64,000 nt of DNA from an uncultured Candidatus Saccharibacteria bacterium. Its GTDB lineage: Bacteria; Patescibacteriota; Minisyncoccia; Phycocordibacterales; UBA2100. The notes under the pieces were generated by a model. It searched no databases, had not been told where the DNA came from, and saw only the letters and a program-made list of their open reading frames with translations. Numbering within the stretch: the stretch's first letter is position 1; each line of letters starts with the position of its first letter. Positions 25,230 to 44,749 of this stretch are shown here, one piece after another. The stretch covers positions 297,372-361,371 of the forward strand of contig CAZELA010000001.1 in assembly GCA_964512835.1 (NCBI GenBank), in the 5' to 3' direction. Position numbers and translations under genes: made by a program.

Positions 25230-25560
25230 CTGACCTCCGACAGTCTGTGCCAGACGCGTTGCGTCGCCGACAGAACTTCCGTCTCCCGTGTGGGCGGTAT
25301 TTCAAGGTCGAATCAGACCCAGCCGAAACCGGATCCTCATTTTCTCCCGCCTATCCTACGCACATCAGGACGAGTCTTCAGTCCACCTCCGGAGATTCGA
25401 ACTCCGGGGCTGATCGCGGTTTCCCACTGAACAACAGGCCATTAGGGCTTCGAACCCCTACACCGCACGAGGGATGGCTCCCATCTAGGTGTTTGCCTGG
25501 ACCGCGCGAAGTATAGACGCACTGGCCACACTGTCAAAAAAGATGGACATGATAAAATAA
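25230..25560 (-). other. about 330-nt non-coding structured region with three tRNA T-arm-like motifs (unclassified RNA or tRNA relics)
   Basis: No ORF over 60 aa on the GC-rich segment. Minus-strand reading has GGGGTTCGAAGCCC, CCGGAGTTCGAATCTCCGG and GGGTCTGATTCGACC stem-loops 55 and 87 nt apart. No complete cloverleaf could be built. Confidence 0.3.
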
Positions 25561-35747: not shown

Positions 35748-37396
35748 ATCAGATACCCAGAAATATCCGCGCAACCGGAAACGGCGGCGGGGGAAAAGCG
35801 GCTGTGCCGGACGAACGTCCGCACGGCACAGGCGGATTCTGGTGGAAGTTCAACGTGATCGTGCTTGCGATCACGTTCGGGTTCTTCTACTGGATCTTTC
35901 CGCACCTCACGCAGAATGTCGTGTTCGACATGATTCTGCGCAACGGCTGGTATTTCATTCCCGGCTTCTTTCTTGCACTTGCGGCGCTCCGGTTCGGAAC
36001 CCGTAACCGCGAAGATCTGATGTCGGGTGAGCTCGGCAAACACCGGCGACCGATTTCGGTGCTGGTTACAGCCGGTACCGCATTTGTGTTGTGGTGCGCG
36101 TTCGTGTGGACCTCGACCGACTACCTGATCTACAAAACGTACGGGTCGTCGTTTACGGCACGCGCCGGGCTCATCCCGTCGTCGCCGGAGTTCACGCGCT
36201 TCACCCCCAAGGCGAACGCCTGCAACGATATCGGTAACTCGATCTCGACCAGCGGCGAACATGTCGACTGCAGCTACGCTGCACCGATGGTGACGTCGAA
36301 AGGGTTCTCGTGGGTCGCGCCGATCGTGCCGCGCGGTCTGTGGAACACGCTGTTCGTGAACAACCCCGGCTTCCTCGTCCTCGACGATTCGGCCGGTTCG
36401 TACGCGAATCCCTCGAAGCGTCTCGTGCGCATCGACGACGAACAGAAAGTCGGACCGGGTATGGAATGGTTCGATAATCTACAGTACAAGCTCGCGCACA
36501 ACGACTTCTTCGCGAACTACGACACGCCGCACTACCTGCCGCTCGATGATTCGAAGCCCGACAAGCTCTCGCTCGTCGTGCCGAAGATCAAGTATTTTCT
36601 CTGGCGCCTGCCCTACTGGGGCGGCGTCGTGATCGTGCACTCCGACGGCAGACTCGAGGATCTCGACGCGGAAAAGGCGGTTGCGGATCCGCGGCTGAAG
36701 GGCAAGTGGATTTATCCGCTCGCGCTCAGCCGGCTCTACATCTCGATCCAGAACTACGGATTGGGATGGGGGCTGCTTACGCCGTTCGTCACGATTCAGG
36801 GCAACCTGGAAATCGAACAGCTCTCGAGCGGTAATCAGTTTCCGTTCCTCACGCAGGGCGCGGATAACAAGCCGTATCTCGTGACTGCGACGCGTGGTCA
36901 GGGAAGTGCTCGCGGACTCTACCGCATGTACTTCACCGATGCGTCTACCGGCGTGACCACGTTCCATCAGTTCGGCCAGCACGAAGTGGTCTACGGTGCG
37001 GGTGCGGCCAAAGCGCGGCTCACCAACATCCAGGGCTATCAGTGGCATCACGAGGGCGAAAAGGGTGGAACGGGAACGATCATCGCGATCGAACCCGTCT
37101 ACGTCGTCCGTCCGAACGATCCCACGCTGTACTGGAAGTTCACGATCACCAACGTGACCTATTCCGGTATTTCGGCGACGGCGGTTGCGAACTCCGCTCA
37201 GCCGGACGACATCAAGGTCTTTCCGCACAGGCAGGACTACGAGTCGTGGCTGAAGGGGAACAATGTTTCTCCGGCATCGGCTACCGCGGTTTCCGCCGCG
37301 GGCGCGTCTGTCCGCGACGAAGTCCTCTCGAAGATTGAAGGCATGACGCGCGAGCTCAACTCGCTCCGCGGTCTCGTGCAATCGCTCCCGAAGTAG
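35744..37396 (+). CDS. large membrane-anchored hypothetical protein (550 aa), translationally coupled to htpX
   Basis: GTG 35744 overlaps the htpX TGA. Three N-terminal TM helices, then about 400-aa domain with no recognised motifs. Confidence 0.5.
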   Translation: MNQIPRNIRATGNGGGGKAAVPDERPHGTGGFWWKFNVIVLAITFGFFYWIFPHLTQNVVFDMILRNGWYFIPGFFLALAALRFGTRNREDLMSGELGKHRRPISVLVTAGTAFVLWCAFVWTSTDYLIYKTYGSSFTARAGLIPSSPEFTRFTPKANACNDIGNSISTSGEHVDCSYAAPMVTSKGFSWVAPIVPRGLWNTLFVNNPGFLVLDDSAGSYANPSKRLVRIDDEQKVGPGMEWFDNLQYKLAHNDFFANYDTPHYLPLDDSKPDKLSLVVPKIKYFLWRLPYWGGVVIVHSDGRLEDLDAEKAVADPRLKGKWIYPLALSRLYISIQNYGLGWGLLTPFVTIQGNLEIEQLSSGNQFPFLTQGADNKPYLVTATRGQGSARGLYRMYFTDASTGVTTFHQFGQHEVVYGAGAAKARLTNIQGYQWHHEGEKGGTGTIIAIEPVYVVRPNDPTLYWKFTITNVTYSGISATAVANSAQPDDIKVFPHRQDYESWLKGNNVSPASATAVSAAGASVRDEVLSKIEGMTRELNSLRGLVQSLPK

Positions 37397-37524
37397 GATC
37401 AGTCCTCAAACAATAGTTCTCAAGAATCGACGCCGCGGCCCCGTGCCGCGGCGTTTTCTTTTTGGTTGACCGGACTGAGTAGTTGGAGCATATTCAAAAT
37501 AGGTTCAACAGGAGGAATTGTTCG

Positions 37525-38478
37525 ATGACAGCCATTCATAAGCACGACCGCTATCGCGGCGCGATGGTCGGATTGCTCGGTGGTGACGAAATCGGGGGTC
37601 CGTACGAGACGTGGGGTGCTGCGGAAATCGCTGCAGACATTGATCGTCGCGGCGGCCTCACCATGTTCGACTATGTGAGTCCGTGGGCAAAGCTGCTTGA
37701 AGGCTCCACGAAGGTGCTGCCGAAGGGGCGCCCGACGGATGATTCCGATCACGCTGCAGCGCTCGGATTGAGCCTCGTCGAGCATCGTCGGGTCGTCCCC
37801 GAAGACATCTATGCTCGGCTTCGTCGGATTACATTCGAGCACGTGAGTCCGCTGTGGAACGGTGTCGCAAAGAATGCCGGCCACACGACACGAACAATGC
37901 TTCGTCCGGCAACGCTTGCAGAATCGCAAGCGCTTACCGTCGAAACATATCCGAGCAACGGTTCGCTCATGCGTGCGGCTGCGCTCTCGCTTTTCTACGG
38001 CTCCTTCGAAGCTGCGGATCACGTAGTCATCGATTCGGTAACGCGCATCACGCACCGGCATGAGGTTGTCGAAGATTGCACCGGCGCGTTTGTCGCGACA
38101 CTGTGCAATCTGCTCGAAGGTCATGATCCCGAATATTCGATCAAATCGCATATCGGATTCTCGCTCTCTGATCATGTGAGCATGCACTGCGATAGGGTCA
38201 CACCGAAAGACCCCGGCACGTGGCCGGCTCGTGGAGCGGCAACGTTCACGCTGCATGTTGCATATTGGTCTTTGATGCACGCAACCAGTTATGCCGACGG
38301 TATCGAAAAGGCGATTCGTGTCGGAGGTGATTCGGAAACCTATGCAGCGGTTGCGGGGGCACTTTTGGGTGCTCGGTTCGGCATTCACGACATCCCTGGT
38401 GCATGGCGCAAAGACATGATGGGTGTCGACGTGATGCTCGGCATTGCCGACGACCTGTACGAGATCGCTCACCGCTGA
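37525..38478 (+). CDS. ADP-ribosylglycohydrolase family protein
   Basis: RYRGAMVGLLGGDEIGGPYE N-terminal motif, NGSLMRAAAL, GGDSETYAAVAGALLGARFG. AGGAGGAA RBS before ATG 37525. Confidence 0.8.
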   Translation: MTAIHKHDRYRGAMVGLLGGDEIGGPYETWGAAEIAADIDRRGGLTMFDYVSPWAKLLEGSTKVLPKGRPTDDSDHAAALGLSLVEHRRVVPEDIYARLRRITFEHVSPLWNGVAKNAGHTTRTMLRPATLAESQALTVETYPSNGSLMRAAALSLFYGSFEAADHVVIDSVTRITHRHEVVEDCTGAFVATLCNLLEGHDPEYSIKSHIGFSLSDHVSMHCDRVTPKDPGTWPARGAATFTLHVAYWSLMHATSYADGIEKAIRVGGDSETYAAVAGALLGARFGIHDIPGAWRKDMMGVDVMLGIADDLYEIAHR

Positions 38479-38493
38479 GGTGGGTACTAAAAA

Positions 38494-38530
38494 ACGGCCG
38501 CCTTTCGAGGCGGCCGTGCTTTTATATAAT
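38494..38530. terminator. bidirectional terminator between the ADP-ribosylglycohydrolase and NrtR genes
   Basis: ACGGCCGCC-tttcga-GGCGGCCGT hairpin with AAAAAA upstream and TTTTATATAATTT downstream. Confidence 0.75.
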
Positions 38531-39220
38531 TTCAATCTCTTTGACCTTGTCGCTCGCAAACCGATACAGCTGCGCGGGCCGGAAGCGTCCGCCGGTTCGC
38601 TTGCGCGGCAGTTCTTTGAGAATATCGAGCTTCAGGATTTTTTTACGGAAATTGCGCTTATCAAGTTCGTGACCGAGCGTAGCCTCGTACATTTGTTCGA
38701 GCTCCGTCAGCGTGAACTCTTTCGGCATGAGCTTACCGATCAGTGTTGTGTAGGTCATGCGCGAATGTAGGCGAGTGAGTGCTACAGACAGCATGTCGGT
38801 GTGATCGTATGCAAGCGTGACTTTCTTGCCGGCGGGGGCCCACCAGCAATCATCTGTGTCGGACTGTTCCGTGTGCGAGAGCGAGCTCCACGGAACATAC
38901 GCGATGTAGCCCACGGCGACCACGCGCCCGCGCGGATCGCGATCGACTTGGCTGAATGTATAGAGCTGTTCCATGTACACCTTGTCGGGATCGACACATG
39001 CTTTTGCAGAGAGGTGACGGCGCGCGGCGTCTTCTGCGGTTTCTTTCGGATCAATAAGGCCGCCGGGGAATCCCTGTGAGTTTGCGAAGTAGGGTGGTCG
39101 ATTCACGGCAACGAGTCGCATATGAAGCTGACCGTCCTTGACGGTAAACAGCGTGACGTCGGTTGCGAGCACCGCAAAGCGCAGATGCTCCGGAGAGGGA
39201 ACGAATGTTCCGTTGGACAT
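38522..39220 (-). CDS. nrtR: NrtR-family Nudix-related transcriptional regulator
   Basis: Degenerate Nudix domain with EQLYTFSQVDRDPRGRVVAVGYIA signature. C-terminal winged helix EFTLTELEQMYEATLGHELDKRNFRKKIL. Confidence 0.75.
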   Translation of the reverse strand: MSNGTFVPSPEHLRFAVLATDVTLFTVKDGQLHMRLVAVNRPPYFANSQGFPGGLIDPKETAEDAARRHLSAKACVDPDKVYMEQLYTFSQVDRDPRGRVVAVGYIAYVPWSSLSHTEQSDTDDCWWAPAGKKVTLAYDHTDMLSVALTRLHSRMTYTTLIGKLMPKEFTLTELEQMYEATLGHELDKRNFRKKILKLDILKELPRKRTGGRFRPAQLYRFASDKVKEIEII

Positions 39221-39287
39221 AGATACACTGTACAGAACAAATAGTTATTGTCAAATATACACTTATCAACAGGTTATTTAGTGTAGT

Positions 39288-39447
39288 ATTGACACTATGT
39301 GAAACCGGGAATACTGTGCGAAGTAGGAGTAGGACATTTGTTCTCTGACATAGTGCGTACATATATTGACAGTGTCAGTTCAAAATGTGACAGTTTCGCC
39401 GGTTTGCTACTTCGTTAGCACATGGTCTTTGACAGTGTGCTAGTGAA
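39288..39447. promoter_or_regulatory. three direct repeats T(A/T)TTGACA(C/G)T(A/G)TG in the nrtR-operon intergenic region (candidate operators or promoters)
   Basis: tattgacactatgtg 39288, tattgacagtgtcag 39364 (with TGTCA-N10-TGACA inverted repeat), tttgacagtgtgcta 39434. Confidence 0.45.
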
Positions 39448-39465
39448 TCTAAGGTAACTGAAACT
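39437..39465 (+). promoter_or_regulatory. putative sigma-70-type promoter of the 39493-44749 operon
   Basis: TTGACA-N16-TAAGGT, then AGAGGAGAA RBS 8 nt before ATG 39493. Confidence 0.35.
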
Positions 39466-39492
39466 GAGTTCAACCCAGAGGAGAACTACCAG

Positions 39493-40686: not shown

Positions 40687-40755
40687 CAGAACGGACATCA
40701 ATGGGAGGCGGCACCGTTCGGTGCCGCCTCGAATTCTTTGAAAAGGATTGCACCG

Positions 40756-41868
40756 ATGATGGATGCAGATCTTCTGCCCGTCTACGAACGCATCATGCAG
40801 GCCGCACGGCCTGAGGATGTGTTCGAAGAATTGTCGGTCGTGCTTCCGCCGCGTCTCATGGAAAAGCATTTACAACCCGAAATGGATGCGATGCGTACCG
40901 TGCTTGATGCGGACCGCTACTCGTCACTCGATGACAAGGAGGCGGCACGACTCGCCAAGCCGAAGCTCGAAGAGTTCTATCGGATGGCGCTCGAGCGCGC
41001 GGCCAAAGGCCTCTACGCGCCCGAGGACTACACGCCCTACGTTCCGACCGGCAACGGTCGGACGATCATCGTCGACGGCACGACATATACGGTCGGTGAA
41101 AAGTTCCACGTGGGAGAGCATTCCGCTCTCTACAAGGGACGCATGGCGATCGATCAGGGAAGCGCAGGGGTCATCATCCGGATCGCGAATGATCCGGATA
41201 CCAATCCCTACGTTCTCAACGAGATCGGCATGCTCGATCAATTGCATCGTGTCGACGTCGGATACTGGCGTCACATTCCGTTCATGCTCGGCCGCTTTTC
41301 CGCGGGCGATCGTATCGGTCTTGTGACGCGCTACTTCTCCGGGCATACGCTCACCGAGGTGCGCGCAAACAAACTGCATCGCGATGGTCTCGACCAGCGC
41401 CATGTTGTGTGGGTGCTCGACAGAATGCTCGGGCTTATGTGGTACTACCACGAGCTCGGCATCGTCCACGGTCGGATCGAGCCGGAGAGAATCCGTGTTC
41501 GGCCGTACAACCACAATGCGCTCCTTACCGGCTGGGGACACGCGGTCTTCAAGCCGGCGATCACCGGACAGAAGCTTGCTTCTGTCGGCGGAATATTCGA
41601 AGCCCCGGAAATCGGGGATTCGGGTGCCGTCGGTCCCTGGACCGACATCTATAGTCTCGGCAAAACGCTCATCTGGCTCATCGGCGGCGATCCTGCCACC
41701 AATGAAATGCCCGATCGTGTCGAACCGAAACTGCGACAGTTTCTGGCGAACATGGTGTGGAAGAGCCCCAAGGCTCGACCGCACAATGCCCGTCAGCTCT
41801 ACGACGCTCAAAACAGGTTGAAAGACACCCTGTGGGAGCGGCGATTCGTCCACATGCCCATGGCATAA
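40756..41868 (+). CDS. protein-kinase-fold protein with degenerate catalytic motifs (pseudokinase-like)
   Basis: VGEHSALYKG (Gly-loop-like), VIIRIA (VAIK with K to R), NEIGMLDQL (C-helix Glu), HELGIVHGRIEPERIRV (HRD/HGD loop with D to G/R), GWG for DFG, TDIYSLGKTLIWLIGG (subdomain IX). Confidence 0.6.
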   Translation: MMDADLLPVYERIMQAARPEDVFEELSVVLPPRLMEKHLQPEMDAMRTVLDADRYSSLDDKEAARLAKPKLEEFYRMALERAAKGLYAPEDYTPYVPTGNGRTIIVDGTTYTVGEKFHVGEHSALYKGRMAIDQGSAGVIIRIANDPDTNPYVLNEIGMLDQLHRVDVGYWRHIPFMLGRFSAGDRIGLVTRYFSGHTLTEVRANKLHRDGLDQRHVVWVLDRMLGLMWYYHELGIVHGRIEPERIRVRPYNHNALLTGWGHAVFKPAITGQKLASVGGIFEAPEIGDSGAVGPWTDIYSLGKTLIWLIGGDPATNEMPDRVEPKLRQFLANMVWKSPKARPHNARQLYDAQNRLKDTLWERRFVHMPMA

Positions 41869-41882
41869 CAAGGGAGACTACC

Positions 41883-43322
41883 GTGAAGACATCAAGGATC
41901 AGTTCACGCGCCGACGCAGAGGTTGCACTCACCAATGTGCGCTCCAGCGCGGCCGCGTTCTCGCATAGCGAAGCCATGACGCGCTCCGGCGCCGGACGGT
42001 GTCATCCGAACCTCAACCCGAAGGGTGTGGTTCGCGAGTGTCTCGATACGAGGCAGATGCCGTTCGTCACGCCGATCGCGATCGGCATGGATATCACGAA
42101 GTCGCGCGGCAACGATGCGCGAATCGTGTACGAACAGACGATGCCGCTTTTGGGCTCGTTGTTCATGTCGGGCGCCGTCACCGATCCGCAGATTCTGTTT
42201 GCGGGTATCGGCGACGCGACCGTCGACACGGCGCCGCTCCAGGTGGGGCAGTTCGAGTCCGATGACCGCATGGACAAGGATCTCGAGCGTATGTGGCTCG
42301 AGGGCGGCGGCGGCGGAACAGGCCAGGAGTCGTACGAGCTGTTTGCGTATCTGCTCGCTCGCAAGACCAAGATCGACGCGATCGACAAGCGCGGCAAGAA
42401 GGGCTATTGCTTCTTCACCGCCGACGAAGCGCCGTATCCGAGCGTGAAGAAGGCCGAAGTCGAGACCGTCTTCGGTGACAAGCTGAAGAAGGACATCCCG
42501 ACGCCGGATATTTTCGCGGAGTTACAGAAGAAGTTCCGCACCTTCCTGATCTATCCGGGTAAGCCGATGGCGGAACGTCAGGATGACATCGATGCCGAGA
42601 TTCGTCAGCGCTTGCTGAAGGCCGGCGGCCGGTTCGAGAACTGCTCGATCCGGGCGACGCTGATCTGGAACAATTTCAATGACCTGGATCTGCATGTCGT
42701 GACGCCGGATCGCGATCACATCTATTACGGCAATCGCACCTCCAGGTGCGGCGGCGCGCTCGATGTGGATCGCAACGCGACCGGTCGCGAGACCCGCGAG
42801 CCCGTGGAGAATATCCGCTGGCCCAAGGGGACCGCGAAGCCGGGCAAGTATCGTGTCTACGTCCAGAACTTCGCCGAGCACGAACGCAACGGCAAGGATA
42901 CGCCGTTCAAGGTCGAGCTCGATCTCGACGGCACGATCAAGACCTTCGAGGGTGTCATGAAGGCCGGCACCACCAAGGGGCCGAGCGACACGATCGCGTT
43001 CGAGTTCGACTACGTGCCGAAAGGCATGCAGCAGGCGAACGCGCAGGGTCGCGAGGCCTACGCCGACGAGACCATCCTCGGCGAGTGGCGCACGTGCATT
43101 CCGGACGGCCACATCATCCGGCTGACGGATGCGAAGTGGACGACCGAAGCCATGATCGGCGTCATGGGTATCCAGAGCGGAAAGAAGACACTCAGGCAGG
43201 TCCTCGCGGACATGCATGAACGTGCCGTCGATCCGAAGGGTATCAAGGACGTCGAGCTCGCGCTCAAGCCGTTCGCCGCGCAGGCGGTGATCGACGAGGT
43301 CGGCGAAGAAGCATTCACTTGA
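41883..43322 (+). CDS. von Willebrand factor A (MIDAS) domain protein with C-terminal beta-rich domain
   Basis: GTG 41883 after AAGGGAGA. IAIGMDITKS (DxTxS MIDAS), GGGGGTGQESYELFA (Thr motif), YCFFTADEAPY (Asp motif). Confidence 0.55.
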   Translation: MKTSRISSRADAEVALTNVRSSAAAFSHSEAMTRSGAGRCHPNLNPKGVVRECLDTRQMPFVTPIAIGMDITKSRGNDARIVYEQTMPLLGSLFMSGAVTDPQILFAGIGDATVDTAPLQVGQFESDDRMDKDLERMWLEGGGGGTGQESYELFAYLLARKTKIDAIDKRGKKGYCFFTADEAPYPSVKKAEVETVFGDKLKKDIPTPDIFAELQKKFRTFLIYPGKPMAERQDDIDAEIRQRLLKAGGRFENCSIRATLIWNNFNDLDLHVVTPDRDHIYYGNRTSRCGGALDVDRNATGRETREPVENIRWPKGTAKPGKYRVYVQNFAEHERNGKDTPFKVELDLDGTIKTFEGVMKAGTTKGPSDTIAFEFDYVPKGMQQANAQGREAYADETILGEWRTCIPDGHIIRLTDAKWTTEAMIGVMGIQSGKKTLRQVLADMHERAVDPKGIKDVELALKPFAAQAVIDEVGEEAFT

Positions 43323-43405
43323 CACGCAGTCAGTACCATCGCACATTACGGGAGCGCCTTTCGGGGCGCTCCTTTGCTTTTGATCTTTTACACAGGGGAA
43401 TAGCA

Positions 43406-44749
43406 ATGAAAAAACACGCGACAATCGTCGTTGATCTCGGGTTCGGCGATGCGGGCAAAGGCACCATCGTTGATTACGTCGCGCGACGCGGCGGCTACGC
43501 CTCGGTCGTTCGATTCAACGGAGGCGGTCAGGCTGCACACAATGTGGTCCTACCCGACGGCCGACACCATACGTTCCGTCAGTTCGGAAGTGCCACGTTC
43601 GTTCCGGGAATTCGGACGCATCTCTCGCGCTTCATGCTCGTGGATCCGTTCGAACTCATTCACGAAGCGAATCTCCTGGTGGACGCCGGCGTTCGTGATC
43701 CGCTTGCGCGGCACTCGATCGACGAGCATGCGCTCGTCGTTGCTCCTCATAGCAAGAATGCCAATCGCGTGCGCGAAGCCCGTCGTGGAAACGGCAGGCA
43801 CGGCACGTGTGCAATGGGTATCGGCGAGACGATGGACATGTCGATCAAACATCCGGACATGGCCATCCGTGCGCGCGACCTGCTCGATCTGAGCGTAGTC
43901 ACACGCAAGTTGAATCGCATCGCGGAGTATGTTGCGGCCGAGTTCAAGGACGATTCGCTCTACAAGGAGCTGGAGAATACGCCGGCTGCGAGCCGCACGG
44001 GTGCGTGGTTCGCAGATGCGCCGCCGAGCGAGTGGGCAGGAATGCTTCACGAGATCGGAAAACGCATCACGATCGTCGACGACAAACATCTGTGGCGCAT
44101 CGCGCGCAGCGGAAACTTGCTGTTCGAAGGTTCGCAGGGAGTTTTGCTCGACGAATGGCGCGGATTTCATCCGTATACCACGTGGTCGACAACGACTGCA
44201 GAGAATGCTCGAACCTTGCTTCAGGAAGCAGGCTACGAGTATTCAACGGAGACGATCGGCGTCCTGCGCGCGTTTCATACGCGTCATGGCGAAGGTCCGT
44301 TCCCGACGGAAAATGCGACGCTCACGAAACTGCTACCCGATAGTCACAACGACAACATCGGTCCGCAGGGAGTGTTTCGTGTCGGCTGGTTTGATGCGGT
44401 GCTCGCACAGTACGCGCTTGATGTATGCGGCGGCGTTGATTCGCTTGCGATCACACATCTCGATCGCTTCGACGCACTGGCTGATCCGCAGATCTGCCTC
44501 GGATACAAATCTGCAAACGGTGCGTTTGCGCGAATTCCGGTGAATCCGGTCAAGGAAGATCTTGTTGCGCAGGCAGAGATCACGAAGTTGGTCGCGCGTG
44601 CGCAACCGCTGTACCAACCCGCGCGCCTGGTGGGCGATCCCTATGCCAGGATGATCGCAGACATGGTTTCGACACCGGTCTCGATCACATCGTACGGGCC
44701 GACCTCGGCGGACAAGCGAGCCCTCGGGAGGCGCGTTCGCGCAGCGTAA
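43406..44749 (+). CDS. adenylosuccinate synthetase (PurA) family protein, divergent paralog
   Basis: P-loop GDAGKGT (GDEGKGK), NGGGQAAHNV (GGHNAGHT), EGSQGVLLD (EGAQGTLLD), HTRHGEGPFPTE (STRVGAGPFPTE), VGWFD (TGWLD), ITHLDRFD (LTKLDVLD). Several PurA substrate motifs altered. Confidence 0.75.
   Translation: MKKHATIVVDLGFGDAGKGTIVDYVARRGGYASVVRFNGGGQAAHNVVLPDGRHHTFRQFGSATFVPGIRTHLSRFMLVDPFELIHEANLLVDAGVRDPLARHSIDEHALVVAPHSKNANRVREARRGNGRHGTCAMGIGETMDMSIKHPDMAIRARDLLDLSVVTRKLNRIAEYVAAEFKDDSLYKELENTPAASRTGAWFADAPPSEWAGMLHEIGKRITIVDDKHLWRIARSGNLLFEGSQGVLLDEWRGFHPYTTWSTTTAENARTLLQEAGYEYSTETIGVLRAFHTRHGEGPFPTENATLTKLLPDSHNDNIGPQGVFRVGWFDAVLAQYALDVCGGVDSLAITHLDRFDALADPQICLGYKSANGAFARIPVNPVKEDLVAQAEITKLVARAQPLYQPARLVGDPYARMIADMVSTPVSITSYGPTSADKRALGRRVRAA

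Follow-up and report, generated by a model that had tools for sequence, protein, structure and literature searches.

A predicted NrtR repressor switch facing a divergent four-gene operon in an uncultured Candidatus Saccharibacteria bacterium

The locus described here lies in a stretch of 64,000 nucleotides, referred to as the window, from an uncultured Candidatus Saccharibacteria bacterium (NCBI GenBank assembly GCA_964512835.1, contig CAZELA010000001.1, positions 297,372 to 361,371, forward strand). It is formed by a gene for an ADP-ribosylglycohydrolase (ARH) family hydrolase, a gene for an NrtR-family regulator (nrtR) and an operon of four genes, named g1 to g4 in the following. The ARH and nrtR genes are convergent on a single hairpin that has a T tract on each strand and can serve both as a terminator; a similar hairpin, rich in GC and with a T tract behind it, stands between ARH and nrtR in the related locus L019. 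On its other side nrtR is divergent from the four-gene operon, and the spacer between them (39221-39492; 272 bp) contains 39% GC versus 55-64% in the adjoining genes. An initial annotation made from the sequence had already given the two protein families, their common terminator and an AT-rich divergent region of about 270 bp, and all of this was confirmed. It had proposed three direct repeats in this region as the operator, and it had overlooked two 21-bp palindromes. The divergent operon does seem to be under the control of NrtR, and in our analysis the sites through which it would do so are these palindromes, named site A and site B. The coordinates of all features are collected in Table 1.

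The centres of sites A and B are 33 bp apart, and both sites contain a GT-N7-AC core. NrtR operators described in the literature have the form of 21-bp palindromes with the same core, often in tandem, as happens at prs-nadV (PMC2330246). The motif TTAGTGT-N7-ACACTAA was found with two or fewer mismatches at two places in the 64 kb, against 0.08 expected, and both are in the control region. In a shuffle test of the 272-bp region, the two matches observed compare with 0.0165 expected, and none of the 2000 shuffles reached two. The NrtR motif of this clade, whose possible lack from the intergenic region had been considered by the initial annotation, is present there. A third NrtR site at the last of the direct repeats (ACAGTGT-GCTAGTG-AATCTAA) was considered and rejected, having four mismatches, no ACAC core and no counterpart in L002.

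Related loci (L numbers), among them loci with genes for relatives of the NrtR protein, were fetched from genome and metagenome collections, and the NrtR-type motif was found in 12 related loci. Close relatives of the regulator (58-77% identity) have perfect TTAGTGT-N7-ACACTAA palindromes. Such perfect copies adjoin nrtR relatives with 61-65% identity that stand divergent to prs-nadV, and relatives with 58-65% identity have the motif at prs-nadV and close to a pnuC-like gene. In L005 and L006 (NrtR 64-65% identical) nrtR is divergent from prs-nadV, with perfect palindromes in the intergenic regions, in L007 (62%) a perfect palindrome lies upstream of nrtR, and in L013 the motif is also found near a pnuC-like gene. 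The motif stands upstream of the four-gene operon in L002, L010, L012, L013, L014, L015, L017 and L019. Site A is identical over its 21 bp in L002 and L019, only its last 19 bases are kept in L015, at the end of the contig, and an NrtR-type site occupies the equivalent position in L005-L007 and L012. Site B is a perfect palindrome in L002 and L019, and its equivalent precedes g1 in L012, L013, L014, L015 and L017. Two sites are located before g1 in L012 (33 bp apart), in L013, where a methyltransferase gene separates nrtR from the operon and nrtR has a site of its own, and in L014, where the upstream 7 kb that were fetched gave no nrtR call. L010 combines a site with three mismatches and a degenerate version of site B with four, and no nrtR was called on the stretch fetched. 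Among the Patescibacteria loci, the NrtR palindrome is present in all the g1 upstream regions except that of L011, a more distant locus in which both nrtR and an NrtR site are lacking. Upstream of g1 in L021 there is no NrtR site, and the nrtR gene was not searched for there. The connection of the module with NrtR was found only in loci of Saccharibacteria-like Patescibacteria; L020, like L021, was not searched for nrtR, nor was it scanned for sites.

The operator and NAD (nicotinamide adenine dinucleotide) gene scans of the organism's own genome covered the 64-kb window. A tblastn search of the window with the Prs, NadV, PncB, NadE, NadM-like and PnuC proteins of the relatives gave no match, in agreement with the absence of NAD genes reported earlier.

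Both palindromes coincide with promoter elements. Site A coincides in part with the -35 of the nrtR promoter. This promoter is kept in L002, and such a position of the site would imply autoregulation. The -10 of this promoter ends 6 nt before the ATG and no Shine-Dalgarno sequence is present, thus the nrtR messenger is probably leaderless; the same type of start is found in L002 and L019 and, approximately, in L005. Site B contains the -35 of the operon promoter P1 together with the first direct repeat. The layout of P1, with the -35 within site B, a 17-nt spacer and TAnnnT, is found in six of seven orthologous loci, and L012 has a 16-nt spacer. P1 is therefore predicted to be the conserved promoter of the operon, leaving a leader of about 170 nt. 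Since its -35 is conserved inside site B, the first repeat is simply made up of the right half of this site and the -35 of P1.

The regulator itself (232 amino acids) matches the Pfam models NrtR_WHD (1e-24; 86.9 bits, cut-off 27) and NUDIX (1.6e-8; 35 bits, cut-off 21.1), and gives full-length alignments to Bacteroides thetaiotaomicron AraR (BtAraR; 5bs6, 1.6e-28) and Shewanella oneidensis NrtR (SoNrtR; 3gz5, 2.6e-27). Its Nudix box reads G-LIDPK-E-TAEDAAR-RHLSAKACV, with RHLSAK where REUXEE is expected. The catalytic glutamates are gone, so the domain is read as a ligand-binding module and not as a hydrolase. The recognition helix of the winged-helix domain, DKRNFRK, is identical to residues 178-184 of BtAraR, whose residues K179-K184 contact GTGT in the crystal (PMC4666351); the GTGT half-site core is likewise common to both regulators, and the helix fits the AGTGT half-site predicted here. 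Regarding the effector pocket, the ADP-ribose contacts K76 and R98 of SoNrtR are kept as K73 and R97, where AraR has Leu and Gly. The position of SoNrtR Asn43, at which Phe36 of AraR fills the phosphate space, is an Arg in the window protein. The N-terminal aromatic contacts of SoNrtR, Tyr10 and Phe15, have no clear alignment. The pocket looks nucleotide-type rather than arabinose-type, though it is not identical to that of SoNrtR.

We think that the locus is a classical NrtR repressor switch over nrtR and the divergent four-gene operon, and we give this reading a probability of about 75%. An NrtR dimer would bind each of the two palindromes; occupancy of site A would cover the -35 of the nrtR promoter and occupancy of site B that of P1, and RNA polymerase would be blocked at both promoters. 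An ADP-ribose-type nucleotide coming from NAD consumption would then bind the dead Nudix domain and free NrtR from the DNA, with de-repression of nrtR and of the four-gene operon. ADP-ribose frees SoNrtR and SyNrtR from DNA in vitro (PMC2330246); for the window protein we infer both this effector and repression itself. The ARH, transcribed from its own promoter, could free ADP-ribose from ADP-ribosylated substrates, and NAD/ADP-ribose recycling would be the theme common to the locus. The second and third repeats would be elements of the leader and might correspond to a second promoter and a hairpin.

Several findings weigh against this switch. The candidate second promoter, P2, if real, has both operators upstream of it and would not be repressed. 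Upstream of ARH (37380-37540) there is no match to TTAGTGT-N7-ACACTAA even with up to five mismatches, the ARH of L019 likewise has no preceding site at five mismatches, and in L005, L012 and L013 the ARH is not beside nrtR. As to the regulator, its best PDB match is, by a small margin, the arabinose sensor AraR. It scores 141.7 bits with the NCBIfam model NF050029 ('ADPR responsive transcriptional repressor NtrR'), for which the cut-off is 400, and belongs to the family without being an equivalog of that curated group. Moreover, the phosphate pocket differs from that of SoNrtR in two contacts, Arg41 being aligned with Val39 and Asn43 with Arg41.

Table 1. Features of the locus, with positions counted from the first letter of the window
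Feature	Position	Strand	Basis or remark
ARH promoter-like site, TTGACC-17-CATATT	37466-37494	+	consensus scan
ARH-family hydrolase	37525-38478	+	Pfam ADP_ribosyl_GH (PF03747)
Bidirectional intrinsic terminator, common to ARH and nrtR	38494-38517	both	10-bp GC stem, T tract on each strand
NrtR-family regulator	38522-39220	-	Pfam NrtR_WHD and NUDIX
nrtR promoter, TTGACA - 16 nt - TACAGT	39254-39249 and 39232-39227	-	consensus scan, 10/12 matches
NrtR operator site A, TTATTGT-CAAATAT-ACACTTA	39245-39265		palindrome scan; predicted
NrtR operator site B, TTAGTGT-AGTATTG-ACACTAT	39278-39298		palindrome scan; predicted
Repeat 1, TATTGACACTATG	39287-39299	+	right half of site B and P1 -35
Operon promoter P1, TTGACA (39289-39294) - 17 nt - TACTGT (39312-39317)	39289-39317	+	
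Leader block GTTCTCTGACA	39340-39350	+	conserved in five g1 leaders
Repeat 2 (TATTGACAGTGTC) with candidate P2, TTGACA (39366-39371) - 17 nt - TGT-GACAGT (39386-39394)	39364-39394	+	
Hairpin/palindrome TAGCACA...TGTGCTA	39411-39447	+	repeat 3 (39427-39439) in loop and right arm
g1, all-alpha protein, 397 aa	39493-40686	+	homologue search, AlphaFold 2 model
g2, kinase-fold protein, predicted pseudokinase	40756-41868	+	Pfam Pkinase, PAK alignment
g3, vWA domain, beta-sandwich and helical tail, 479 aa	41883-43322	+	AlphaFold 2 model, Foldseek
g4, divergent adenylosuccinate-synthetase-like (PurA-like) enzyme	43406-44749	+	Pfam Adenylsucc_synt

Besides the switch, the leader downstream of P1 (39318-39492) might constitute a second control layer independent of NrtR, with a promoter at repeat 2 and a hairpin or operator at repeat 3, which another factor might bind or which might act within the 5' UTR. 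We take this possibility seriously, if at somewhat less than even odds. The three 13-mer repeats reported by the initial annotation are real, but their starts are 39287, 39364 and 39427 instead of 39288, 39364 and 39434 (TTGACA words at 39289, 39366 and 39429), and the pattern given for them, T(A/T)TTGACA(C/G)T(A/G)TG, is followed exactly by the first copy only, the second ending in C and the third starting with C. The inverted repeat TGTCA-N10-TGACA that had been described is also present (39373-39392), within the span of repeat 2 and P2, but it is lost in L002 and L019, the closest of the related loci. What is kept in these two loci is TATTGACA, also found in L013 and L015, together with TGTGA(C/A)AGT, and repeat 2 with TGT-GACAGT could be the second, extended -10 promoter P2. 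The words GTTCTYTGACA, TATTGACA and TGTGA(C/A)AGT, as well as the palindrome of repeat 3, are conserved in several loci; words like GTTCTCTGACA also precede the prs, ARH, pncB and nadM-like genes of relatives, and a further conserved block of the leader is TGTGACAGT. The RNA of the repeat 3 palindrome folds with -16.9 kcal/mol (z -2.8), and pairing is retained by differing stems in L002, L013 and L015, which makes four loci with the window, z being -2.8 to -3.6 in three. On the other hand, the candidate -10 elements are of poor quality, L012, L014 and L017 have just a weak form of the hairpin, and the sequences are too few for a covariation test. No consensus structure was obtained by RNAalifold for six g1 leaders, so a riboswitch-like leader is unsupported, and the control region had no Rfam match even at permissive thresholds. 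Repeats 2 and 3 are thus best regarded as conserved leader elements and not as NrtR palindromes.

As a separate observation, GTTCT(T/C)TGA(C/A)A, present at 39340-39350 and 39424-39434 of the window, is found 20-150 nt before the starts of g1, prs, ARH, pncB and nadM-like genes in relatives such as L005-L007 and L017. At two or fewer mismatches the word occurs 33 times in the window, where 15 are expected.

The place of the ARH in the circuit has to be weighed as well. The protein (317 amino acids) matches PF03747 with 1.4e-40 (140.3 bits versus a cut-off of 26.2) over profile positions 1-285 of 287. It has the acidic metal-site motifs GRPTDDSD and GGDSET, and its TDD and GGDxxT motifs align to the Thermus thermophilus ARH (2cwc) and to Tri1 (6dre). 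The scores with the NCBIfam equivalogs DraG (TIGR02662; 52.7 bits) and Tri1 (NF041672; 67.4 bits) are below their cut-offs of 337 and 490. About 130 homologues were found, mostly in Patescibacteria. The ARH could be a mere neighbour, for example giving immunity to ADP-ribosylating toxins as Tri1 does, with no feed into the NrtR signal. This would agree with its own promoter-like site, the lack of an NrtR site before it, the terminator that separates it from nrtR, its absence beside nrtR in the loci named above and the identity of its best NCBIfam match, Tri1, even if far under the cut-off. We nevertheless consider it rather unlikely, for the linkage of ARH and nrtR recurs in three further lineages. 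The convergent pair followed by the divergent g1 is found again in L019, where the ARH is 69% identical. In L017 one strand carries nrtR, the four genes of the module (g1, kinase-like, g3 and PurA-like), then genes for a GNAT protein, a nadM/Nudix-like protein and a protein of 274 amino acids, and finally ARH, pncB and nadE; an NrtR site precedes the nadM-like gene of the ARH-pncB-nadE string (L017 7981-14315). In L022, nrtR is followed by PP2C, a 638-amino-acid gene, an isochorismatase-like gene, a 267-amino-acid gene, ARH, nadE and pncB, and an NrtR site with one mismatch stands in front of the string from PP2C to nadE-pncB (L022 2979-12527). ARH is therefore repeatedly in the company of NAD salvage genes under the NrtR motif in relatives, and a linkage of nrtR with draG is known in Streptomyces (PMC2330246). 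A circuit from ARH to ADP-ribose to NrtR is plausible, with ARH as the source of effector that we infer.

NrtR could also bind sites A and B and respond to an effector other than ADP-ribose, either NAD, as reported for NdnR of Corynebacterium, or another, unrelated ligand such as arabinose, as AraR; in our opinion this is quite unlikely. NrtR-family members with other effectors exist (PMC4666351), and the top PDB match with AraR, the two phosphate contacts that differ from SoNrtR and a target operon that is not an NAD gene set all go in that direction. However, AraR senses L-arabinose with a cleft filled by Phe36, Leu67 and Gly89/Tyr5, whereas the window protein keeps basic residues, with Lys, Arg and Arg in the place of Leu67, Gly89 and Phe36. 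Moreover, the motif precedes prs-nadV, pncB-nadE and pnuC-like genes in relatives, and no sugar-utilisation genes lie beside nrtR in any locus fetched. The remaining alternative, in which NrtR binds the three direct repeats and the operon promoter takes its -35 from the third (TTGACA-N16-TAAGGT), is very improbable: the repeats are indeed enriched (five matches to TWTTGACASTRTG with at most one mismatch in the window versus 0.29 expected, three of them in the control region) and TTGACA-like words are similarly placed in several orthologous leaders, but the NrtR relatives linked to prs-nadV have the inverted motif and not direct repeats, there is no ACAC half-site in repeats 2 and 3, the nearest approach to a site at repeat 3 deviates at four positions and is unconserved, repeat 1 is only a half of site B, the third TTGACA is TTTACA in L002 and L019, TAAGGT is unconserved and lies 15 nt from it in the window (39429-39434 to 39450-39455), and at 25527 the repeat occurs again, without a mismatch, as the -35 of an unrelated promoter-like site.

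The repressor switch that we favour has close precedents. In Shewanella oneidensis (PMC2330246; 3gz5) NrtR likewise joins a Nudix and a winged-helix domain, keeps K76 and R98 and has tandem 21-bp GT-N7-AC palindromes, and the relatives of the window protein in L005 and L006 sit beside prs-nadV, the Shewanella target. In contrast, NAD genes are absent from the four-gene operon of the window, recognition helix and half-site are not those of Shewanella, and the window nrtR has a divergent promoter over which its own operator extends. The nrtR1-draG-SCO1765 locus of Streptomyces (PMC2330246) also links an NrtR-family gene to an ADP-ribosylglycohydrolase, a link read there as tied to reversible protein ADP-ribosylation. 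Its nrtR1 and draG are co-directional behind one predicted site, whereas in the window the pair is convergent, no site precedes the ARH and the operators stand before another operon. Mycobacterium smegmatis NrtR, an auto-repressor that controls nadABC and for which control by acetylation has been reported (PMC6800001), shares the divergent arrangement of nrtR and target as well as autoregulation, with different target genes. As the Streptomyces nrtR-draG linkage had already been reported, the regulatory device is of a known kind. The new element would be the target operon, which we regard as a widespread uncharacterised module tied to NAD/ADP-ribose sensing in these bacteria.

The first protein of this operon, g1, has 206 homologues, mostly in Patescibacteria, with 44-82% identity among the matches listed, and some of its relatives carry a SAM-like N-terminal domain (SAM_TNK). 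Its AlphaFold 2 model (predicted local distance difference test, pLDDT, of 84) had no fold match in the PDB or among viral structures. The second protein, g2, scores 30.3 bits with Pfam Pkinase, below the cut-off of 31.7, and its orthologues in related loci are 59-81% identical. In the alignment with PAK kinases, HRD is changed to HGR, DFG to GWG and the catalytic-loop Asn to Arg (PER), and the Lys of VAIK is unaligned; with these residues missing, g2 is a predicted pseudokinase. The third protein, g3, can be described as vWA/Sec24-like; its model (pLDDT 82.5) gave Foldseek matches with SpaC, ArnB (8s05_B) and integrin beta I-like domains, from 1e-8 to 1e-6, and the protein has more than 2700 homologues across phyla. 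With a match to ArnB of 4.3e-8 and an adjoining kinase-fold gene, the module bears some likeness to the archaeal ArnA/ArnB system with the kinases ArnC and ArnD (8s05), but g2 has no catalytic residues, a PurA-like enzyme and a helical protein are added, and there is no FHA or zinc-ribbon partner. The fourth protein, g4, matches Pfam Adenylsucc_synt with 9.8e-65 (219 bits) and does not reach the NCBIfam PurA cut-offs (182.6 versus 402, NF002223). It aligns with Escherichia coli PurA over the full length, keeping GDxGKG, His41, Gln224 and TR..GPFPTE, with TKLD changed to THLD.

Synteny of the four genes is kept in L002 and in L012-L017, and in L010 the contig stops inside the fourth gene. The module is 45-80% identical across many Patescibacteria. 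Outside the Patescibacteria matches it was met in L021 (5526-10868; a contig of 1.16 Mb) and in L020 (3181-9455; Kofleriaceae, Myxococcota), where the PurA-like gene is divergent and the g1 homologue was not found. Given these copies and the more than 2700 homologues of g3, the module is old and widespread. Neither a function for the module nor relevant literature on a PurA-like/vWA/kinase module or on DUF2135 came out of the searches, and nothing was found on NrtR together with Saccharibacteria. PADLOC, run with seven proteins of the locus, gave no match except generic kinase models on g2, with which a known defence system is unsupported.

A further step, that NrtR has recruited the four-gene module as an undescribed NAD/ADP-ribose-responsive system in Saccharibacteria-like Patescibacteria, is tentative, and we would rather doubt it at present. 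If it were true, the module might be a purine-nucleotide/NAD-recycling branch or serve in signalling of NAD depletion, in organisms that live on hosts and are devoid of most biosynthesis, and the PurA-like enzyme might use a substrate other than inosine monophosphate. NrtR regulons have been used as pointers to NAD metabolism genes. In this sense, the link to NrtR would be the first testable handle on the module, whose expression should rise with accumulation of ADP-ribose, and it would place the ARH within the NAD recycling gene set of reduced genomes. The clade's operator motif, TTAGTGT-N7-ACACTAA, could be used for mapping the whole regulon in Patescibacteria.

Some minor features of the operon and of the rest of the window may be added. 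For g3 and the PurA-like gene, the listed open reading frames (starts 41757 and 43319) probably begin too early; judged by the lengths of homologues and the positions of Shine-Dalgarno sequences, the starts would be GTG 41883 and ATG 43406. For the kinase-like gene, the start is probably ATG 40756 or 40759. GC-rich hairpins followed by T tracts stand after g1 (40705-40730) and after g3 (43350-43381) and are kept in L012-L017, and a TTGACA-N17-(T/C)AnnnT promoter-like site lies over the g3 stop (43319-43347), 5' of the second hairpin, in six of eight loci. This arrangement suggests that expression is graded along the operon and that the PurA-like gene has its own start. The word GTTCTTTGACA was considered as a possible regulon-specific motif; part of its between-gene signal is the T tract of the terminator-like hairpins after g1 and g3, and the crude gene map with which it was placed was unreliable. 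Over the whole window, Rfam at the gathering threshold returned a single tRNA and nothing else. Finally, the exact 13-mer copy at 25527 belongs to a near-consensus promoter-like site, TTGACA-N16-TATACT, on the minus strand of 25400-25545. This site reads into about 100 nt with no Rfam match at the gathering threshold, a stretch that may hold a small RNA or a short gene.

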